Virus record (IMG/VR): IMGVR_UViG_3300046454_000714
Location: 1 to 64,000 of that record
Strand: one strand, 5' to 3'
Length of the DNA stretch: 64,000 bases
Source: a virus
Shown here: positions 51,860 to 57,674 of the stretch, in pieces
Numbering within the stretch: position 1 is the first letter of the stretch
Layout: the number at the start of each line of letters is the position of its first letter
Translations under genes and position numbers: made by a program
Notes under the pieces: model-generated
The model's database searches: none
What the model was told of the DNA's origin: nothing
The model's input: the letters and a program-made list of their open reading frames with translations, nothing else

Positions 51860-53459
51860 CCCGGACCGCTTCACCTCGCTCGGCTTCGAGGCCATCGACT
51901 GGATCGAGCACTACCTCTGCCACGGGCCCGGCGACGTACAGGGCGAGCCGTTGCTCATCGACGACGAGATGGCCGCCTTCATCGCCAAGGCTTACCAGCT
52001 CGACCCGGTGACGGGCCGCCGCAAGGTCAACCGTGCGTTCCTGTCCCGACCGAAGGGCCGGGCCAAGAGCGAACTCGCCGGCGCGCTGGTGTGTTTTGAG
52101 GCCCTGGGGCCGTGCCGCTTCGACGGCTGGGATGCCGAGAGCGACCCGGTAGGCCGCGCACAGGTGTACCCGTTCATCCGCTGCCTCGCGACGGAAGAGA
52201 ACCAGGCGGGCAACACCTACGACAACGTCACCGCGATGCTGGAGCACCTCGTCGAGAACTTCGGCGACGAGTTCCCAGGCATCGACTTGGGTCGTTCGGC
52301 GCAGACATCGAGCCGCATCTTCATCGAGGGCGGCGGCGAGATCGTGCCGTCGACATCGTCGGGCGCGGCCAAGGATGGTGGCAAGGAGACGTTCGCCGTC
52401 TTCGATGAGATCCACCTCTACGTCCATCCCGAGTTGCGGGCGATGCACAAGACGGTGCGCCGCAACCTGGTGAAGCGGCGCAGGGCCGAGCCGTGGTCGC
52501 TGGAGACATCGACGATGTATGCGGTCGGCGAGAACTCGGTAGCTGAGGCGACGCACGAGTACCACAAGGCGGTCGTCTCGGGCCGGGTGCGCGACGGCGG
52601 CCTGCTCTTCGACCACCGCGAGGCCCCGCACGTCGAGGATCTGCACGACGACGACCAGCTCATGCCCGCGCTGGAGTTCGTGTACGGCGACGCGGCGAAG
52701 TGGATGGACCTGGAGCGGATCGCCAGCGACATGCGCGAGCCCGACACCGATCCGGCAGACGCCCGGCGCTACTTCCTCAACCAGCCCGGCACTGCCTCGG
52801 CGAAGGCCTTCGACCCGGGCCGCTGGCGGGAGTTGGCGGACTCGCGCTTCATCGTTCCGGCGAAGGAAGCGATCTCGATCGGCTTCGACGGCTCGAAGTG
52901 GAGCGACTCAACGGGCTTTGTGGCAACCCAGCTGGATACGGGCCACCAATGGGTGCTCGGCGTCTGGGAGTCGCCGGCGAACAAGCAGGAAGCCGAGTCG
53001 TGGGAAGTCCCTGAGGTCGAGGTCAACGCCGTCCTGGATGACGCGATGAACACGTGGCGGGTCGTGCGCCTGTACGCGGACCCGGCGTACTACGAGGAGA
53101 CGATCGCGGGCTGGGCCGGCAAGTACGGCCCGAAGGTGGTCACCGAGTGGTGGACGCACCGGCGCCGGCAGATGGCGTTCGCCCTGCGCGCGTACAAGAC
53201 GGCGATGACGGGCGGCGAGCTGTCGCACGACGGCAGTGACGCCTTCGCACGGCACATCGCCCAGGCGGTGAAGCGGAACGCGGGTGTGAAGGACGACGAG
53301 GGCAAGCCGATGTGGGTGATCCAGAAGGATCGCCACGATTCGCCCCGAAAGATCGACCTCGCGATGGCGGGCTGCCTGTCCTGGGAGGCCAGGCGGGACG
53401 CGATCAAGGCGGGCGGCAACGAGCCGCCGCGCTCCCGGAAAACAACTGTGATGCGCTGA
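51840..53459 (+). CDS. terL: terminase large subunit
   Basis: RPKGRAKSE, Walker B VFDE.H, RRYFLNQ, IGFDGS..SDST, KIDLAMA. Confidence 0.95.
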   Translation: MARRIADPDRFTSLGFEAIDWIEHYLCHGPGDVQGEPLLIDDEMAAFIAKAYQLDPVTGRRKVNRAFLSRPKGRAKSELAGALVCFEALGPCRFDGWDAESDPVGRAQVYPFIRCLATEENQAGNTYDNVTAMLEHLVENFGDEFPGIDLGRSAQTSSRIFIEGGGEIVPSTSSGAAKDGGKETFAVFDEIHLYVHPELRAMHKTVRRNLVKRRRAEPWSLETSTMYAVGENSVAEATHEYHKAVVSGRVRDGGLLFDHREAPHVEDLHDDDQLMPALEFVYGDAAKWMDLERIASDMREPDTDPADARRYFLNQPGTASAKAFDPGRWRELADSRFIVPAKEAISIGFDGSKWSDSTGFVATQLDTGHQWVLGVWESPANKQEAESWEVPEVEVNAVLDDAMNTWRVVRLYADPAYYEETIAGWAGKYGPKVVTEWWTHRRRQMAFALRAYKTAMTGGELSHDGSDAFARHIAQAVKRNAGVKDDEGKPMWVIQKDRHDSPRKIDLAMAGCLSWEARRDAIKAGGNEPPRSRKTTVMR

Positions 53460-53474
53460 CGACGGGGGTGACCT

Positions 53475-54860
53475 ATGGCCCTCGATCTGGAACCGGATGC
53501 CTGGTTGAAGCGGCTGATCCACTGCCATGACGGTGACCTGCCGCAGTTGAGGCTGATGGACAGCTACTACGAGGGCACGCAGCCTCTGTCGTATTTGGCT
53601 CCGGAGATTCAGTCGGAACTCTCGGACCGGATGCGCCAACTGGTCATCAACTGGCCGCAGTTGGTCGTGGATGCCTTGGATGAGCGTCTGGACGTCGAGG
53701 GCTTCCGGTACGCGGACTCCGAGACGACCGCGGCGGATCTGTGGGACGTGTGGCAGGCCTCCGACATGGACGAGGGTTCGCAGCAGGCCCACGTGGATGC
53801 TCTGGCCCTGAAACGCTCCTACGTGATCATCGGCGCGAATGAGGACGACGAGGCGAACCCGATCGTGACCGCGGAGTCGGCGCTGGAGGTGTTCGCGGAG
53901 AGGGATCCGCGGACTCGCCAGGTGGTGGCGGCGGTGAAGCGTTGGGATGAGCCGTCGGCGGCCGGGTCGGCGCCGGTGAAGTGGGCGACGCTGTATCTGC
54001 CGAATGCGCGGATGACGTTCGAGCAGCAGAAGGGCGCTTGGGTCGAGGTCGACCGGGATGAGCACAACCTCGGCGAGGTGCTGGTTGTTCCGTTGGCGAA
54101 CCGGCCGCGACTGCGGCACCTGGATGGCACGTCCGAACTCCGCTCGGTCATCCCGATCTCGGACGCGGCCTGCAAGATCGCCTCGGACATGATGGTCAGC
54201 GCGGAGTATCACGCGATGCCGCGCCGGTGGGCGACGGGCATGTCGCGTGACGACTTCGCCGACGAGAACGGGCAACCGCTGGGCGCGATGTCGGCGCTGG
54301 CAGGCCGCATGTGGACGAACGAGAGCAACGAGGTGAAGTTCGGGCAGTTCCAGGAGGCCCAGCTCTCCAACTTCCACGAAACGATCAACGTTCTCGCCCG
54401 CCTGGTGGCCGCGATCACGGGCCTGCCTCCCGCATTCCTCGGCCTGGCGACGGATCAGCCTCCGTCTGCGGATGCGATCCGCGCGTCGGAGGCCCGCCTG
54501 GTGAAGCGCGCGGAGCGCCGTCAGCGTGCGTTCGGCGAAGCCTGGGAGCGGGTCATGCGCCTCGTTCTCCTGGTGCGGGACGGCGAGTTGGACCCGCGGA
54601 CCCGCAAGCTCGAAACCGTGTGGCGGGATCCGTCGACGCCGACGTTCGCGCAGAAGGCCGACGCGGTCGTCAAGCTGCACGCCTCCGGCATTCTGCCGAC
54701 GGAGCAGGCGTGGGAGGACTTGGGCTACAGCGCAGTGCAGCGGGCCCGGATGCGGGGCATGCAGGACGATGCCCTGACCCGGATGACGGCCATGGACCTG
54801 CACCAGATGTCGACAGCCCAGGATCCGGCGCCCGTTGAGGCGCCTCCCGTCGGCGGCTGA
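53475..54860 (+). CDS. portal protein (SPP1 gp6-like)
   Basis: YYEG.QPL, NWP.LVVDA..ERL, SADAIRA.E..LV. Confidence 0.92.
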   Translation: MALDLEPDAWLKRLIHCHDGDLPQLRLMDSYYEGTQPLSYLAPEIQSELSDRMRQLVINWPQLVVDALDERLDVEGFRYADSETTAADLWDVWQASDMDEGSQQAHVDALALKRSYVIIGANEDDEANPIVTAESALEVFAERDPRTRQVVAAVKRWDEPSAAGSAPVKWATLYLPNARMTFEQQKGAWVEVDRDEHNLGEVLVVPLANRPRLRHLDGTSELRSVIPISDAACKIASDMMVSAEYHAMPRRWATGMSRDDFADENGQPLGAMSALAGRMWTNESNEVKFGQFQEAQLSNFHETINVLARLVAAITGLPPAFLGLATDQPPSADAIRASEARLVKRAERRQRAFGEAWERVMRLVLLVRDGELDPRTRKLETVWRDPSTPTFAQKADAVVKLHASGILPTEQAWEDLGYSAVQRARMRGMQDDALTRMTAMDLHQMSTAQDPAPVEAPPVGG

Positions 54861-54862
54861 TC

Positions 54863-56854
54863 GTGGCCGTCGAGACGCAGGCGCACCAGGACATCATCGA
54901 CGCCTATGGCCGGTCTCAGCAGCGGGCTGTCATCCAGACGACGGTGACGCTGCAGCGGCTGTGGAAGGAGCTTGCGGCCACGGATCTCTCACGGTCGTGG
55001 CTCGGGGGTCTGGGTGCGGCGATGGTGCGGGCCGTGTCGGCCGGCCAGTTGGTGGCGGCGTCGACGGGCCAGAAGTACATCGAGGCGATGGTCCGCGGGG
55101 ATGGGCTGGGCAACAACTACATGGAGCAGGCGTCGCATGTCGACGCCCGCTCGTTCTCGGGTGCCGCGTCGGACGGCCGGGCGCTGGACAGCCTGCTGTA
55201 TCTGCCGGTGATTCGCACGAAGACGCTGATCGGTAACGGGCTGACGTTGCAGGAGGCGATGCTCGGCGGCAGGGCCCAGCTCTTGCAGGTGGCCGCTTCG
55301 GAGGTCGCGGATGCGGGCCGTGGTGCGGCCAGTGTGTCGATGATCGCGAACCGGTCGGTGACGGGCTACGTGCGGACTGTCCGCTCGGGGGCCTGTGCGC
55401 GGTGCGCGATTCTCGCTGGCCGCTGGTACCGGTGGAATGCCGACTTCGAACGGCACAAGAGGTGCTTCCCCGCCGGTGTCGTCGTGTCAGGCCCGCGCAC
55501 GCTGGCGGCCACGCGGCGGCGGTATGAGGGGGAACTCGTCATCCTCACGACGGCGAGTGGCCAGGAGCTCCCCGCCACCGGCAATCACCCGATACTGACG
55601 CGACGCGGCTGGGTCGCTGCCAATCTCATCCAGGAAGGCGACGAGGTAGTCCGCAGCCTCCGGCCGGAGGGCGCTGCGCCCCTCGTAGTCCCAGATCATC
55701 AGCAGATGCCATCCCGCATCGAGGATGTATGGGCTACGGAGAGCGTGGCGGGCGTGCTTCGCGGCGTGCCAACCACCGCCGAGGATTTCCACGGCGACGG
55801 AGGCCACGGCGAAGTCGACGTTGTAGGGCCCAACCGCTTTCTGTGGGGTGAAGTCGAGGCAGCGCTCGCGCAGCATCTGGGCGAAGAGGTCCTCACCGTC
55901 GGAGCGTTGGGCTCGATCGGCATTCCGCTCTCGGCTCAGCGCGGCCACTTTGAGCGTGTCACCGGAGATCGGTTTGCCGCGGACGGCGTCATGGGCGGCC
56001 TGCGTGATCCTGGCCCGCTCCTCGGGGCTGGCCTTGGACATGCGCAGGGCATTGGCTTCAGCGCGGTCGCGGAGATGCGTCCCGGCCTGCTTGAGGTGGC
56101 GCCGCACGACGCCTCGCATGACGCCATAGCGGATGGATATGGACTGTTCGCTCTCTCCGCTCTCGTAGGCGGCAACGAGTTCAGCGGTGGGGAGATCTAT
56201 GGCGCAGGGCCGCGGTGGGATGCCGCGGGCCTGGCGGGCTCGATGGAAGACGCTGAGCGAGATGCCCGAGTTGGCCGCGAGCTCCTTGAGCGGCTCGCCG
56301 GACAGGTAGAGCTCGATCGCGTGGTCGAGGCGCGCAGGGTCAGTTGGTCCGGGCATGTGTATGACCTCAATTCGACAGAGGGCTGGTTCAACGCGAACGG
56401 CCTAATCGTATCTAACTGTCAGTGCTACGGGGTGCCAGCTACAGAGGCTCGCCCGGGCCGTCACACGAACCCGATGTCGTTCTTTCAGGGTCTGTCGCGC
56501 GCGGAGCAGGATCGCCGGTTCACGATCGGCGGCGCGGAGGCGATCCGGAACGGCGCCGACATCTACTCGGTGGTGAACGCGGGCCGTTCGACGATCACGC
56601 TGGACGCCTACGGCAAGAAGGTCGTGGCGACGCTCGAAGGCACGACGAAGCGCGGCGCGTTCTACCAGCAGATGCTGCGTGAGGCCGAGCAGCGCACCGG
56701 GCAGAGGTTCGCCCGGAACGGCTACGACCTGGAGCGTGGCCTGCCCCGCTTTCACCTGCGGACGCCACGGCTCACGCCCGGCGAGATCCTGCGTCTCTCG
56801 GATGACCGTAACGAGCTGATCCGCCTGCTACGGCGTTTCGGCTACCTGTCGTAG
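54863..56854 (+). CDS. MuF/gp7-like minor head protein containing an intein
   Basis: After portal; C.RC.ILAGR.Y and F.RH.R|CQC motif split by a Hint insertion. Confidence 0.85.
   Translation: MAVETQAHQDIIDAYGRSQQRAVIQTTVTLQRLWKELAATDLSRSWLGGLGAAMVRAVSAGQLVAASTGQKYIEAMVRGDGLGNNYMEQASHVDARSFSGAASDGRALDSLLYLPVIRTKTLIGNGLTLQEAMLGGRAQLLQVAASEVADAGRGAASVSMIANRSVTGYVRTVRSGACARCAILAGRWYRWNADFERHKRCFPAGVVVSGPRTLAATRRRYEGELVILTTASGQELPATGNHPILTRRGWVAANLIQEGDEVVRSLRPEGAAPLVVPDHQQMPSRIEDVWATESVAGVLRGVPTTAEDFHGDGGHGEVDVVGPNRFLWGEVEAALAQHLGEEVLTVGALGSIGIPLSAQRGHFERVTGDRFAADGVMGGLRDPGPLLGAGLGHAQGIGFSAVAEMRPGLLEVAPHDASHDAIADGYGLFALSALVGGNEFSGGEIYGAGPRWDAAGLAGSMEDAERDARVGRELLERLAGQVELDRVVEARRVSWSGHVYDLNSTEGWFNANGLIVSNCQCYGVPATEARPGRHTNPMSFFQGLSRAEQDRRFTIGGAEAIRNGADIYSVVNAGRSTITLDAYGKKVVATLEGTTKRGAFYQQMLREAEQRTGQRFARNGYDLERGLPRFHLRTPRLTPGEILRLSDDRNELIRLLRRFGYLS
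55463..56416 (+). mobile_element. intein (318 aa)
   Basis: Block A CFPAG, block B TGNHPILT..GW...L..GD.V, block F HVYDL, block G ANGLIVSN followed by +1 Cys. Confidence 0.9.
55487..56356 (-). CDS. antisense-encoded HTH + DUF559/Vsr-like endonuclease inside the intein
   Basis: GAGGT SD 7 nt before ATG; two HTH repeats; S.GE..F...L...F.PQ..VGPY.VDFA...VAVEI.GGGWH...L..GW..L.IW; GC3 bias on this strand. Confidence 0.8.
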   Translation of the reverse strand: MPGPTDPARLDHAIELYLSGEPLKELAANSGISLSVFHRARQARGIPPRPCAIDLPTAELVAAYESGESEQSISIRYGVMRGVVRRHLKQAGTHLRDRAEANALRMSKASPEERARITQAAHDAVRGKPISGDTLKVAALSRERNADRAQRSDGEDLFAQMLRERCLDFTPQKAVGPYNVDFAVASVAVEILGGGWHAAKHARHALRSPYILDAGWHLLMIWDYEGRSALRPEAADYLVAFLDEIGSDPAASRQYRVIAGGGELLATRRREDDEFPLIPPPRGRQRARA

Positions 56855-56933
56855 CCCGCAGGCCGCCGCATCACGACCCAAGTTTGGCCGCGCGCAAGGC
56901 GCGGTCTCTGATCCCGCAATGGGAGTTCCATCC

Positions 56934-57674
56934 ATGAGTGCGACTCGTACCCGCTGGCTGCCCGCTGCTCAGAGCGTGGGCTGGTTCCGGCTCAACCGTC
57001 ACGAAGACCCCGACCCCGCCGACCCGGAGCCTGCTCCGGACCCGGCAGCCGATCCGGCAGATCCGGATCCCGAGCCTGACCCGGCAGGCGACCCGGCGGA
57101 CCCCGAGCCTGATCCGGAGCCTGAAGGCGCGGACAAACTCGGCGATGAGGGCAAGAAGGCTCTCGACCGGATGAAGGCCGAGCGTGCCGCGGCCAAGAAG
57201 ACTGCCGCTGCCGAGAAGAAGCGCGCCGACGACCTTGCACGCAAGGTGCAGGAGTTCGAGGACGCGCAGAAGTCTGAGGCGGAAAAGCTCGCGGCGAAGG
57301 TCGAACGGTCTGCCCAGCGGGAGGCCAAGGCGACCGCGCGTGCCGTGGCGGCCGAAGTGCGGGCCGCGGCCGGCGAGTTCGCCGACCCGGGCGACGCCGT
57401 GGATGTGCTGATGCGCGACCCCAGCCAGTACGTCGACGCGGACGGCGAGATCGACATGGACGCCATCGAGACGGCCCTGACGGATCTGCTGGGCCGGAAG
57501 CCGCACTGGAAGAAGCCTGAGCCGGCCGCCCCGGTGGTTGAGCCGAAGCAGAAGCTGAAGCCGGATCCGGGCCAGGGCTCGCGTGGCGCTCCGGCTCCCG
57601 TGGACTACCGCACCGCCTCGAAGGAAGAGGTCGCTGCGGAGCTCGGCAAATTCGGCTACCGGCAGCGCGTGTGA
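56934..57674 (+). CDS. capsid scaffolding protein
   Basis: Asp/Pro-rich N-terminus, LG..GKKAL..MK.ER coiled coil, KPH, PDP.QG. Confidence 0.85.
   Translation: MSATRTRWLPAAQSVGWFRLNRHEDPDPADPEPAPDPAADPADPDPEPDPAGDPADPEPDPEPEGADKLGDEGKKALDRMKAERAAAKKTAAAEKKRADDLARKVQEFEDAQKSEAEKLAAKVERSAQREAKATARAVAAEVRAAAGEFADPGDAVDVLMRDPSQYVDADGEIDMDAIETALTDLLGRKPHWKKPEPAAPVVEPKQKLKPDPGQGSRGAPAPVDYRTASKEEVAAELGKFGYRQRV

Follow-up and report, generated by a model that had tools for sequence, protein, structure and literature searches.

The MuF-like head gene and its intein

The window analyzed in this study is a stretch of 64,000 nucleotides (nt), positions 1 to 64,000 of the IMG/VR virus record IMGVR_UViG_3300046454_000714, and derives from an uncultured, GC-rich phage. 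Its MuF-like head gene carries an intein and, wholly inside that intein on the opposite strand, a gene for a protein with a predicted tandem helix-turn-helix (HTH) region and a Vsr-like nuclease domain. This two-stranded cassette is the subject of the present analysis, and its parts are listed in Table 1. The source record is 87.5 kb long with an estimated completeness of 93%, and the guanine plus cytosine (GC) content of the window was 69%.

Table 1. Features of the head gene, the intein and the opposite-strand gene (window positions; aa, amino acids)
Feature	Position	Strand	Basis or remark
MuF-like minor capsid/head morphogenesis gene, 663-aa precursor	54863-56854	+	Open reading frame (ORF) list; weak Pfam VG15 match
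N-extein, 200 aa, ending ...CARC...RHKR	54863-55462	+	Invariant C178, C181, R197, H198
Class-1 intein by sequence, 318 aa (Cys1...Asn318, then +1 Cys), 954 nt	55463-56416	+	Precursor residues 201-518
Hint N-terminal splicing part, blocks A and B	55463-55678	+	Sense-favoured selection up to ~55670
Sense-frame middle of the intein, precursor residues 273-449	55679-56209	+	Opposite the nuclease gene
Hint C-terminal splicing part, blocks F and G (...GHVYDL...LIVSN)	56231-56416	+	Invariant residues; sense-favoured selection
C-extein, 145 aa and stop, starting CQC	56417-56854	+	Invariant C519, C521; aligns to Phishy after CDC
Antisense gene, 289-aa HTH-HTH-Vsr/DUF559-like nuclease, putative homing endonuclease	55487-56356	-	Wholly inside the intein
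Vsr-like nuclease domain, residues ~149-269	55550-55912	-	Structure and profile matches
Tandem HTH region, residues ~12-43 and ~58-101	56054-56323	-	Pfam HTH_23, HTH_58
Shine-Dalgarno (SD) core GAGG, 9-12 nt before the ATG	56365-56368	-	Spelled by block F Asp-Leu codons
-10-like hexamer TACGAT, -54 to -49 of the ATG	56405-56410	-	Spelled by block G Ile-Val codons

The insert followed the sequence frame CFPAG...TGNHP...HVYDL (as GHVYDL)...VSN/C, the slash marking the junction with the C-extein. In an alignment of 65 sequences, C201, T239, H242, N518 and C519 were invariant, corresponding to the N-terminal Cys, the TxxH of block B, and the C-terminal Asn with its following Cys; within the C-terminal Hint part, H498, V499, L502, E506, G507, W508, S517 and N518 were likewise invariant. 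The intein-less MuF protein of Gordonia phage Phishy reads a contiguous RHPG-CDC where the window has RHKR-[318 aa]-CQC. Pfam matched the sense intein with Intein_splicing (PF14890) only (E 3.2e-7, 30.7 bits, cut-off 35.8), and TIGR01445 gave the window protein 21.4 bits against a cut-off of 24.5. The sense intein was matched at E<=1e-3 by 309 proteins out of 8000 candidates scored, and many homologues carried a precomputed PF14890 match or the source name "Hint domain-containing protein". These observations indicated that the insert is, by its sequence, a bona fide class-1 intein, and splicing may be predicted because the catalytic residues are conserved and the head gene is essential.

An AlphaFold2 (AF2) model of the precursor supported the same division of the protein. 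When this model was compared with the PDB by Foldseek, the top matches were almost only inteins, with probability 0.9-1.0 and E 1.6e-3 or weaker. The exteins mostly reached a pLDDT score (predicted local distance difference test) of 75-98, and the Hint N-terminal part (residues 201-270) reached 50-81 as means of 10-residue blocks. Residues 273-449 remained below 50 even with the 65-sequence alignment, whereas the exteins and both Hint parts were modelled confidently. No LAGLIDADG or HNH family was listed for the sense intein by Pfam or NCBIfam at an E-value limit of 1, and an endonuclease in the sense frame was therefore rejected.

The head gene has a portal-like ORF (53475-54860) on one side and a scaffold-like ORF (56919-57674) on the other, and relatives found by tblastn fell under coding sequences annotated as MuF-like or head morphogenesis. 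The intein interrupts an invariant CxxC...H...CxC set of the MuF-like protein (C178, C181, H198, C519 and C521; window positions 55394-55405, 55454-55456 and 56417-56425), which is contiguous in the intein-less Phishy protein and looks like a metal-binding site. The intein target was conserved in all branches seen, as RHxx/CxC, AHPN/CRS or DFN/CRC.

The nuclease gene on the opposite strand

The minus-strand ORF runs in exact codon register with the head gene, from its ATG (cat at 56354-56356) to a TGA stop (tca at 55487-55489). With its total overlap of 870 nt, it extends beyond the structureless middle of the intein and overlaps the Hint parts by 64 and 42 codons, with block B of the intein lying opposite the codons for the final two strands of the nuclease fold. 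Its product had 130 homologues at E<=1e-3, and 2261 cluster representatives matched at the same limit. Two Pfam families scored above their cut-offs, DUF559 (PF04480) at residues 148-224 (23.3 bits, cut-off 20.6) and HTH_58 (24.5 bits, cut-off 23.8); REase_MTES_1575 (MTES_1575) and HTH_23 fell under theirs. The AF2 model, built with an alignment of 59 homologues, had a mean pLDDT of 91.6.

Structural comparison placed the C-terminal domain (residues 149-269) closest to the Vsr endonuclease 1CW0, with a Z-score of 10.7 and a root-mean-square deviation (rmsd) of 2.4 over 111 aligned residues. The catalytic domain of the homing endonuclease I-Bth0305I (3R3P) followed (Z 9.6, rmsd 2.3, 92 residues), and then the DUF559 structure 3HRL (Z 9.4, with a profile match at E 1.3e-5). 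D181 was invariant in the homologue alignment, E190 and H197 were conserved in at least 90% of sequences, and the window nuclease keeps D181, E190, G193, H197 and R207. For the N-terminal region, the profile of the 59 homologues matched the tandem-HTH protein Cbp1 (2LVS) at E 1.7e-7 over profile positions 9-94, and structural matches at Z ~5 were to Paired-domain, Tc3 and Hin-like folds. On the evidence of its family matches, its confident fold, purifying selection on the minus strand and its conservation across more than 90 loci, the antisense ORF is a genuine coding gene, for an HTH and Vsr/DUF559-like nuclease that is presumably expressed.

A preliminary description of this DNA had proposed most of this arrangement, and the proposal stood. 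The 318-aa intein in the MuF-like gene was supported by its ends and its invariant catalytic residues, the restoration of RHKR-CQC upon intein removal by the contiguous Phishy motif, and the lack of a LAGLIDADG or HNH domain in the sense middle by the Pfam search. The antisense ORF of 289 aa, in register and wholly inside the intein, agreed in coordinates and in stop and start codons, and the proposed pair of HTH repeats with a DUF559/Vsr-like nuclease agreed with the Pfam and 1CW0 matches.

The virus record of the window holds a single nuclease copy and no free-standing paralogue. A scan of genome contigs with the nuclease gave 208 pattern matches, none of which was confirmed. In some of the antisense nucleases (P0072, P0075, P0078 and P0096), a C-terminal extension of 40-60 residues, at about columns 420-480 of the homologue alignment, showed a Cys/His-rich CxCGCG...GHN pattern; since the nuclease C-terminus lies at the intein N-terminus, such extensions would be coded opposite the N-extein.

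Selection, open frames and expression signals on the two strands

The two strands were compared in a codon alignment of the window (WIN) with six IMG/VR relatives, where first and third codon positions trade places between the sense and antisense frames; the three closest pairs were those among WIN, L004 and L005. In the N-extein, the ratio of nonsynonymous to synonymous differences (pN/pS) in the sense frame was 0.18-0.40 for these three. Between WIN and L005 (190 codons), sense positions 1, 2 and 3 carried 24, 11 and 66 differences, giving a pN/pS of 0.18 in the sense frame and 1.38 in the antisense frame. The C-extein was similarly constrained (sense pN/pS 0.17-0.20), as were the first 100 codons of the intein, where the three pairs gave 0.10-0.13 in the sense frame and 0.68-1.03 in the antisense frame. 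The pattern was reversed in the 100 codons at 55901-56200, where sense positions 1, 2 and 3 carried 41, 14 and 16 differences between WIN and L004 (pN/pS 1.42 sense, 0.27 antisense), and the three pairs gave 1.1-2.2 in the sense frame and 0.24-0.31 in the antisense frame. In fifteen-codon windows, the switch to antisense preference came at ~55670; this preference ended near 56165, followed by a mixed stretch, and the sense frame was favoured again from ~56255 (to 56430), with one more mixed window at 56300-56344.

Among close relatives, the strand under selection thus flips inside the intein, and the nuclease gene is under purifying selection in the window lineage. The per-strand comparison of homologues that the preliminary description had suggested showed the antisense frame constrained in the center and the sense frame in the exteins and Hint ends. 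Codon composition agreed with this pattern, and with the antisense GC bias at third codon positions (GC3) that the same description had reported: the exteins had a sense GC3 of 0.86-0.88 and a GC1 of 0.66, whereas in the overlap the sense GC1 was 0.80 and the GC3 0.74. Horizontal transfer is not claimed from the higher conservation of the Hint parts. Functional constraint may explain it, as the nuclease center was as diverged as the exteins between WIN and L006.

An open, in-register pair of frames was present in 16 of 16 loci (GC 0.42-0.69) and in all 80 of the IMG/VR loci (GC 0.44-0.73), the latter being the best 80 of 277 confirmed relatives; in none of these loci was the antisense frame broken by a stop. 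A stop-mirror test gave the chance of finding no TTA, CTA or TCA in a frame, given its Leu and Ser counts and the codon usage of the exteins. In six loci with a GC of 0.42-0.52, avoidance of these codons in the nuclease frame had P values of 7e-5 to 1e-8, and in the sense frame of 3e-6 to 3e-11. It is by leaving out these three codons, which are stops on the opposite strand, that each frame keeps the other open. When the Hint parts of the window were used as tblastn queries, HintN and HintC flanked the nuclease core on the opposite strand, in the expected order, in 74 of the 80 loci. The remaining six gave HintN only. In three of these (L044, L083 and L086), the nuclease match started within 100 nt of the end of the locus, so HintC may be cut off; the other three (L061, L072 and L076) have room, and their HintC has probably diverged too far to be found by this search.

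Very long stop-free antisense frames also ran through neighboring genes. Plus-strand open spans of 820-996 codons were present in L004, L005 and L008, and the minus strand of the window holds a 631-aa ORF at 52908-54803. Open frames alone therefore mean little in these GC-rich phages. Antisense selection was seen only in the intein stretch.

In-register shadow frames are common in GC-rich genes, and the antisense ORF could be read as non-coding, the shadow of an endonuclease or linker domain in the sense frame. This reading is scarcely credible. Nuclease matches in Pfam and the PDB occurred only in the antisense frame, and for the ORF being kept open in AT-rich phages P fell as low as 1e-8. 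A shadow-ORF artefact was rejected on the selection seen at antisense third positions and on the contrast between the sense middle, with a pLDDT below 50, and the antisense protein at 91.6.

Candidate signals for expression of the nuclease were found within the codons of the splicing blocks. The survey covered 90 loci, in 77 of which the site was located by a block F/G regular expression and an ORF test; the 13 dropped were L010, L013, L037, L044, L046, L056, L061, L072, L074, L076, L077, L083 and L086. Expected values were obtained by resampling 25 sense codons among their synonyms. The His codon of block F, read on the other strand, gives the start codon of the nuclease, which was ATG in 54 of the 77 loci and GTG in 23; for CAT, the share expected among His codons was 0.38 on average. 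Of the 77 loci, 67 had an SD core at -17 to -5, where 23.9 were expected. A TAnnnT hexamer with at least five of six matches to the -10 consensus, at -60 to -35, was present in 52 of 77 against 4.3 expected, most commonly as TACAAT at -54 (23 loci) or TATAAT at -51 (14 loci). In E. coli phage Snoke, a TG stands one base upstream of the -10 box. The window's -10 element uses the rare codon GTA, which occurred in none of the 114 Val codons of neighboring late genes, and the rare CAT is likewise used at the signal sites. The SD and the TACGAT box of the preliminary description were thus found in place, recurring in relatives beyond codon resampling. Their conservation supports independent expression signals for the nuclease, as far as sequence comparison can indicate. 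No -35 element was evident upstream of the nuclease gene, and a simple scan found no full sigma-70 consensus there.

The signals and the selection also bear on the possibility that the endonuclease of the window phage is an inactive or silent relic, in a vertically inherited intein whose antisense ORF is kept open by high GC. The -10 element of the window is TACGAT and not TACAAT, an open double frame has a P of ~0.05 per frame at 69% GC with many long spurious ORFs nearby, and the VSR-like cases of an actinophage survey (Gosselin, Arsenault and Gogarten, bioRxiv 10.1101/2025.01.02.630785, version 2025-10-20) look, two clusters aside, vertically inherited or like singletons. A relic would not, however, be expected to hold the central antisense pN/pS of 0.24-0.31 (sense 1.1-2.2) that was observed among the window and its two nearest relatives, nor to keep the five conserved nuclease residues with the SD and ATG intact. 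We therefore consider a relic quite improbable.

Distribution, proposed mechanism and known relatives

The cassette is widely distributed. A tblastn search with the antisense protein gave 115 GenBank phage records (Salmonella 62, Gordonia 15, Klebsiella 8, Escherichia 6, Vibrio 3, Acinetobacter 3, and others), and cassette loci span phages of Salmonella, E. coli, Klebsiella, Vibrio and Aggregatibacter. Eight intein-carrying records were inspected (Vivi2, Aaphi23, Snoke, Malisha, 1N2-2, PvVp04, KpTDp1 and PST-H1). In all eight, the nuclease match lay inside the head gene on the opposite strand, and none of the eight annotates a nuclease gene at the match. On short metagenome contigs, gene callers often called the antisense ORF in place of the head gene (P0001, P0002, P0011, P0012, P0019 and others); several such ORFs carry the JGI label "very-short-patch-repair endonuclease", and one NCBI record (Streptomyces phaeochromogenes) lists the antisense ORF as a hypothetical protein. 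The gene is therefore annotated haphazardly rather than never. In Idiomarinaceae phage 1N2-2 (L013), the opposite strand holds at locus positions 398-916 an H-N-H endonuclease gene that is free-standing and annotated in its own right, between the capsid gene and ORF 12 of the head module that also carries the MuF intein.

Presence and absence of the intein could be compared in the enteric branch. The MuF gene of Salmonella phage PST-H1 matched 407 phage records, 58 of which covered at least 80% of it in one place, and most other matches listed were split in two, with a coverage of 53-56%. In phage S106, exactly 272 codons are missing between ...AHPN and CRS.... This is the pattern expected of a mobile intein, as read from the sequences. 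Near-identical DNA to that of the window was present in rhizosphere metagenome runs (24 run rows, mostly rhizosphere DNA), and no contig skipping the intein was found in the four sequencing runs compared with the window. Contigs from two root RNA-Seq libraries, from relatives ~90% alike, covered 55019-55851 and 56235-56390; these are strandless, may reflect DNA carry-over and say nothing on expression, and the two runs hold a 0.05 share.

The antisense gene might be functional with a main role other than homing, as a nuclease against competitor or host DNA, a DNA-binding protein or an antisense regulator of MuF. Its tandem HTH resembles repeat-binding and repressor proteins (besides Cbp1, a cluster A2 phage repressor at Z 5.2), and an independent promoter facing the late operon would give convergent transcription. 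Such a role is nevertheless improbable, as the gene lies between the Hint halves at one MuF site in all 74 scorable loci of the 80, no free-standing copy was present among the loci examined, and the presence/absence polymorphism removes intein and nuclease together, exactly. The nearest characterized architecture, the N-terminal HTH and C-terminal Vsr-like domain of I-Bth0305I, is moreover reported as a proven homing endonuclease (Taylor et al. 2011, PMC3239194).

Very probably, the cassette belongs to the mobile inteins of the "anti-sense VSR-like homing endonuclease" type and resides in the conserved RHxx/CxC site of a phage MuF-like head protein. Several observations weigh against this reading. 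Transcription, translation, splicing, cleavage and homing are predictions, for the window and its relatives alike. The window protein alone scored under the curated cut-offs of the Hint families, and the double open frame of the window taken alone is only marginally unlikely. The last Asp of the EDxHD set could not be placed, as D213 is only a majority residue and D223 is not conserved. The window's TACGAT matches less well than the forms seen in most relatives, TACAAT or TATAAT, and a simple sigma-70 and terminator scan of 55300-56900 returned no promoters and no terminators, so that the evidence for the -10 element comes from comparison only. The loci compared are related to each other, and counts from the 80-locus and 77-locus sets are not independent events. 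The presence/absence polymorphism in Jerseyvirus may reflect either gain or loss of the intein.

Under the mobile-intein reading, the late operon would be translated straight through the 954-nt insert on the plus strand. About 72 N-terminal and 62 C-terminal Hint residues would fold, the ~177 residues between them forming a structureless linker, and protein splicing would release a MuF protein of 345 aa. On the minus strand, the same codons in register would encode the nuclease, which, with a -10 element spelled by block G codons and conserved among relatives, could be made independently of the late operon. By analogy with I-Bth0305I and canonical inteins, the nuclease would, in mixed infections, cut intein-less MuF alleles near the insertion site, and the entire cassette would be copied during the repair that follows. 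A further proposal appeared just on the probable side: that the cassette is a self-contained dual-strand unit, in which blocks F and G double as the nuclease start codon, ribosome-binding site and -10 element, and the last two beta-strands of the nuclease lie opposite block B. If so, splicing chemistry and nuclease expression would be locked into the same codons.

The preliminary description had implied that the arrangement was new, a claim that did not hold. The preprint of Gosselin et al. describes full inteins of actinophages that have anti-sense VSR-like endonucleases. It counts 63 actinophage inteins with non-canonical endonucleases, names minor capsid proteins among the four host protein types of these, and proposes an origin in which a free-standing endonuclease gene invaded an intein. 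As in the VSR-like cases, the window has a contiguous intein, a putative homing endonuclease on the opposite strand and an in-frame middle without recognizable structure. The Vsr match is essentially equal, with the preprint's VSR-like model (residues 144-267) reaching Z 10.6 against 1CW0 where the window protein (149-269) reached 10.7, and the preprint also reports an HHpred link to 3R3P. The window element thus adds one more member to a type already described. The preprint's survey took in PhagesDB actinophages only, whereas here the same cassette, at the same MuF site, was also found in phages of Gammaproteobacteria; and its ORFs are described as typically outside the splicing domain, whereas the ORF here overlaps both splicing parts. 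A term search of the preprint's main text found none of "promoter", "ribosom", "start codon" and "Salmonella". Relative to that main text, the present analysis adds the Gammaproteobacteria hosts, the stop-mirror and selection-switch statistics, the start codon, SD and -10 signals in splicing-block codons, and the Hint overlap.

Other known elements share parts of this organization. The anti-sense LAGLIDADG intein endonucleases of Synechocystis dnaX and Chloroflexus SpoVR-like genes (Gorbalenya 1998; Gogarten et al. 2002; both as cited in the preprint) also lie opposite intein and host gene, and differ in nuclease family and in their cellular hosts. The "fractured genes" of Dassa et al. (2009, PMC2677866) are split inteins whose halves are separated by a free-standing gene for a Vsr-like or GIY-YIG endonuclease, and likewise tie a Vsr-like nuclease to an intein as a separate gene, not a fused domain. 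Asp51 and His69 of Vsr have conserved counterparts in their Vsr-like homing endonucleases, and the position of Phe62 is taken by an invariant Glu; D181, E190 and H197 of the window protein correspond to these three positions, with spacings of 9 and 7 residues where theirs are 11 and 7. In fractured genes, host gene and intein are divided over two ORFs, and the 3' end of the endonuclease gene has short overlaps with the downstream gene, whereas the window has a single uninterrupted 663-aa ORF and an antisense nuclease gene overlapping it for 870 nt.

I-Bth0305I, the prototype of the EDxHD homing endonuclease family (PMC3239194), combines an N-terminal pair of HTH/NUMOD-like motifs with a C-terminal Vsr-like domain, as does the window nuclease. 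It shares ~20% identity with the window protein in the aligned core; Pfam files the latter under DUF559. Unlike the window nuclease, it resides in a group I intron of phage recA and is neither antisense nor in an intein. In the ShiLan domain (Arsenault et al. 2025, PMC11855218), a "hidden" out-of-frame HNH endonuclease lies inside a phage DNA methylase; there too, the host frame stays open through an inserted endonuclease gene read in another frame, but the two genes share one strand, the nuclease is of another family, and there is no detectable splicing domain.

The cassette offers a clean natural case in which ~870 nt encode two proteins on opposite strands, only one of which gene callers annotate. 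The cassette is relevant to the way in which inteins gain endonucleases, through invasion by a free-standing gene, and to how overlapping genes keep their frames open. If the codons of the splicing blocks do serve both strands, this sharing would account for the persistence of one cassette at a single MuF site among phages of Actinobacteria as well as Gammaproteobacteria, over a GC range of 0.42-0.73.

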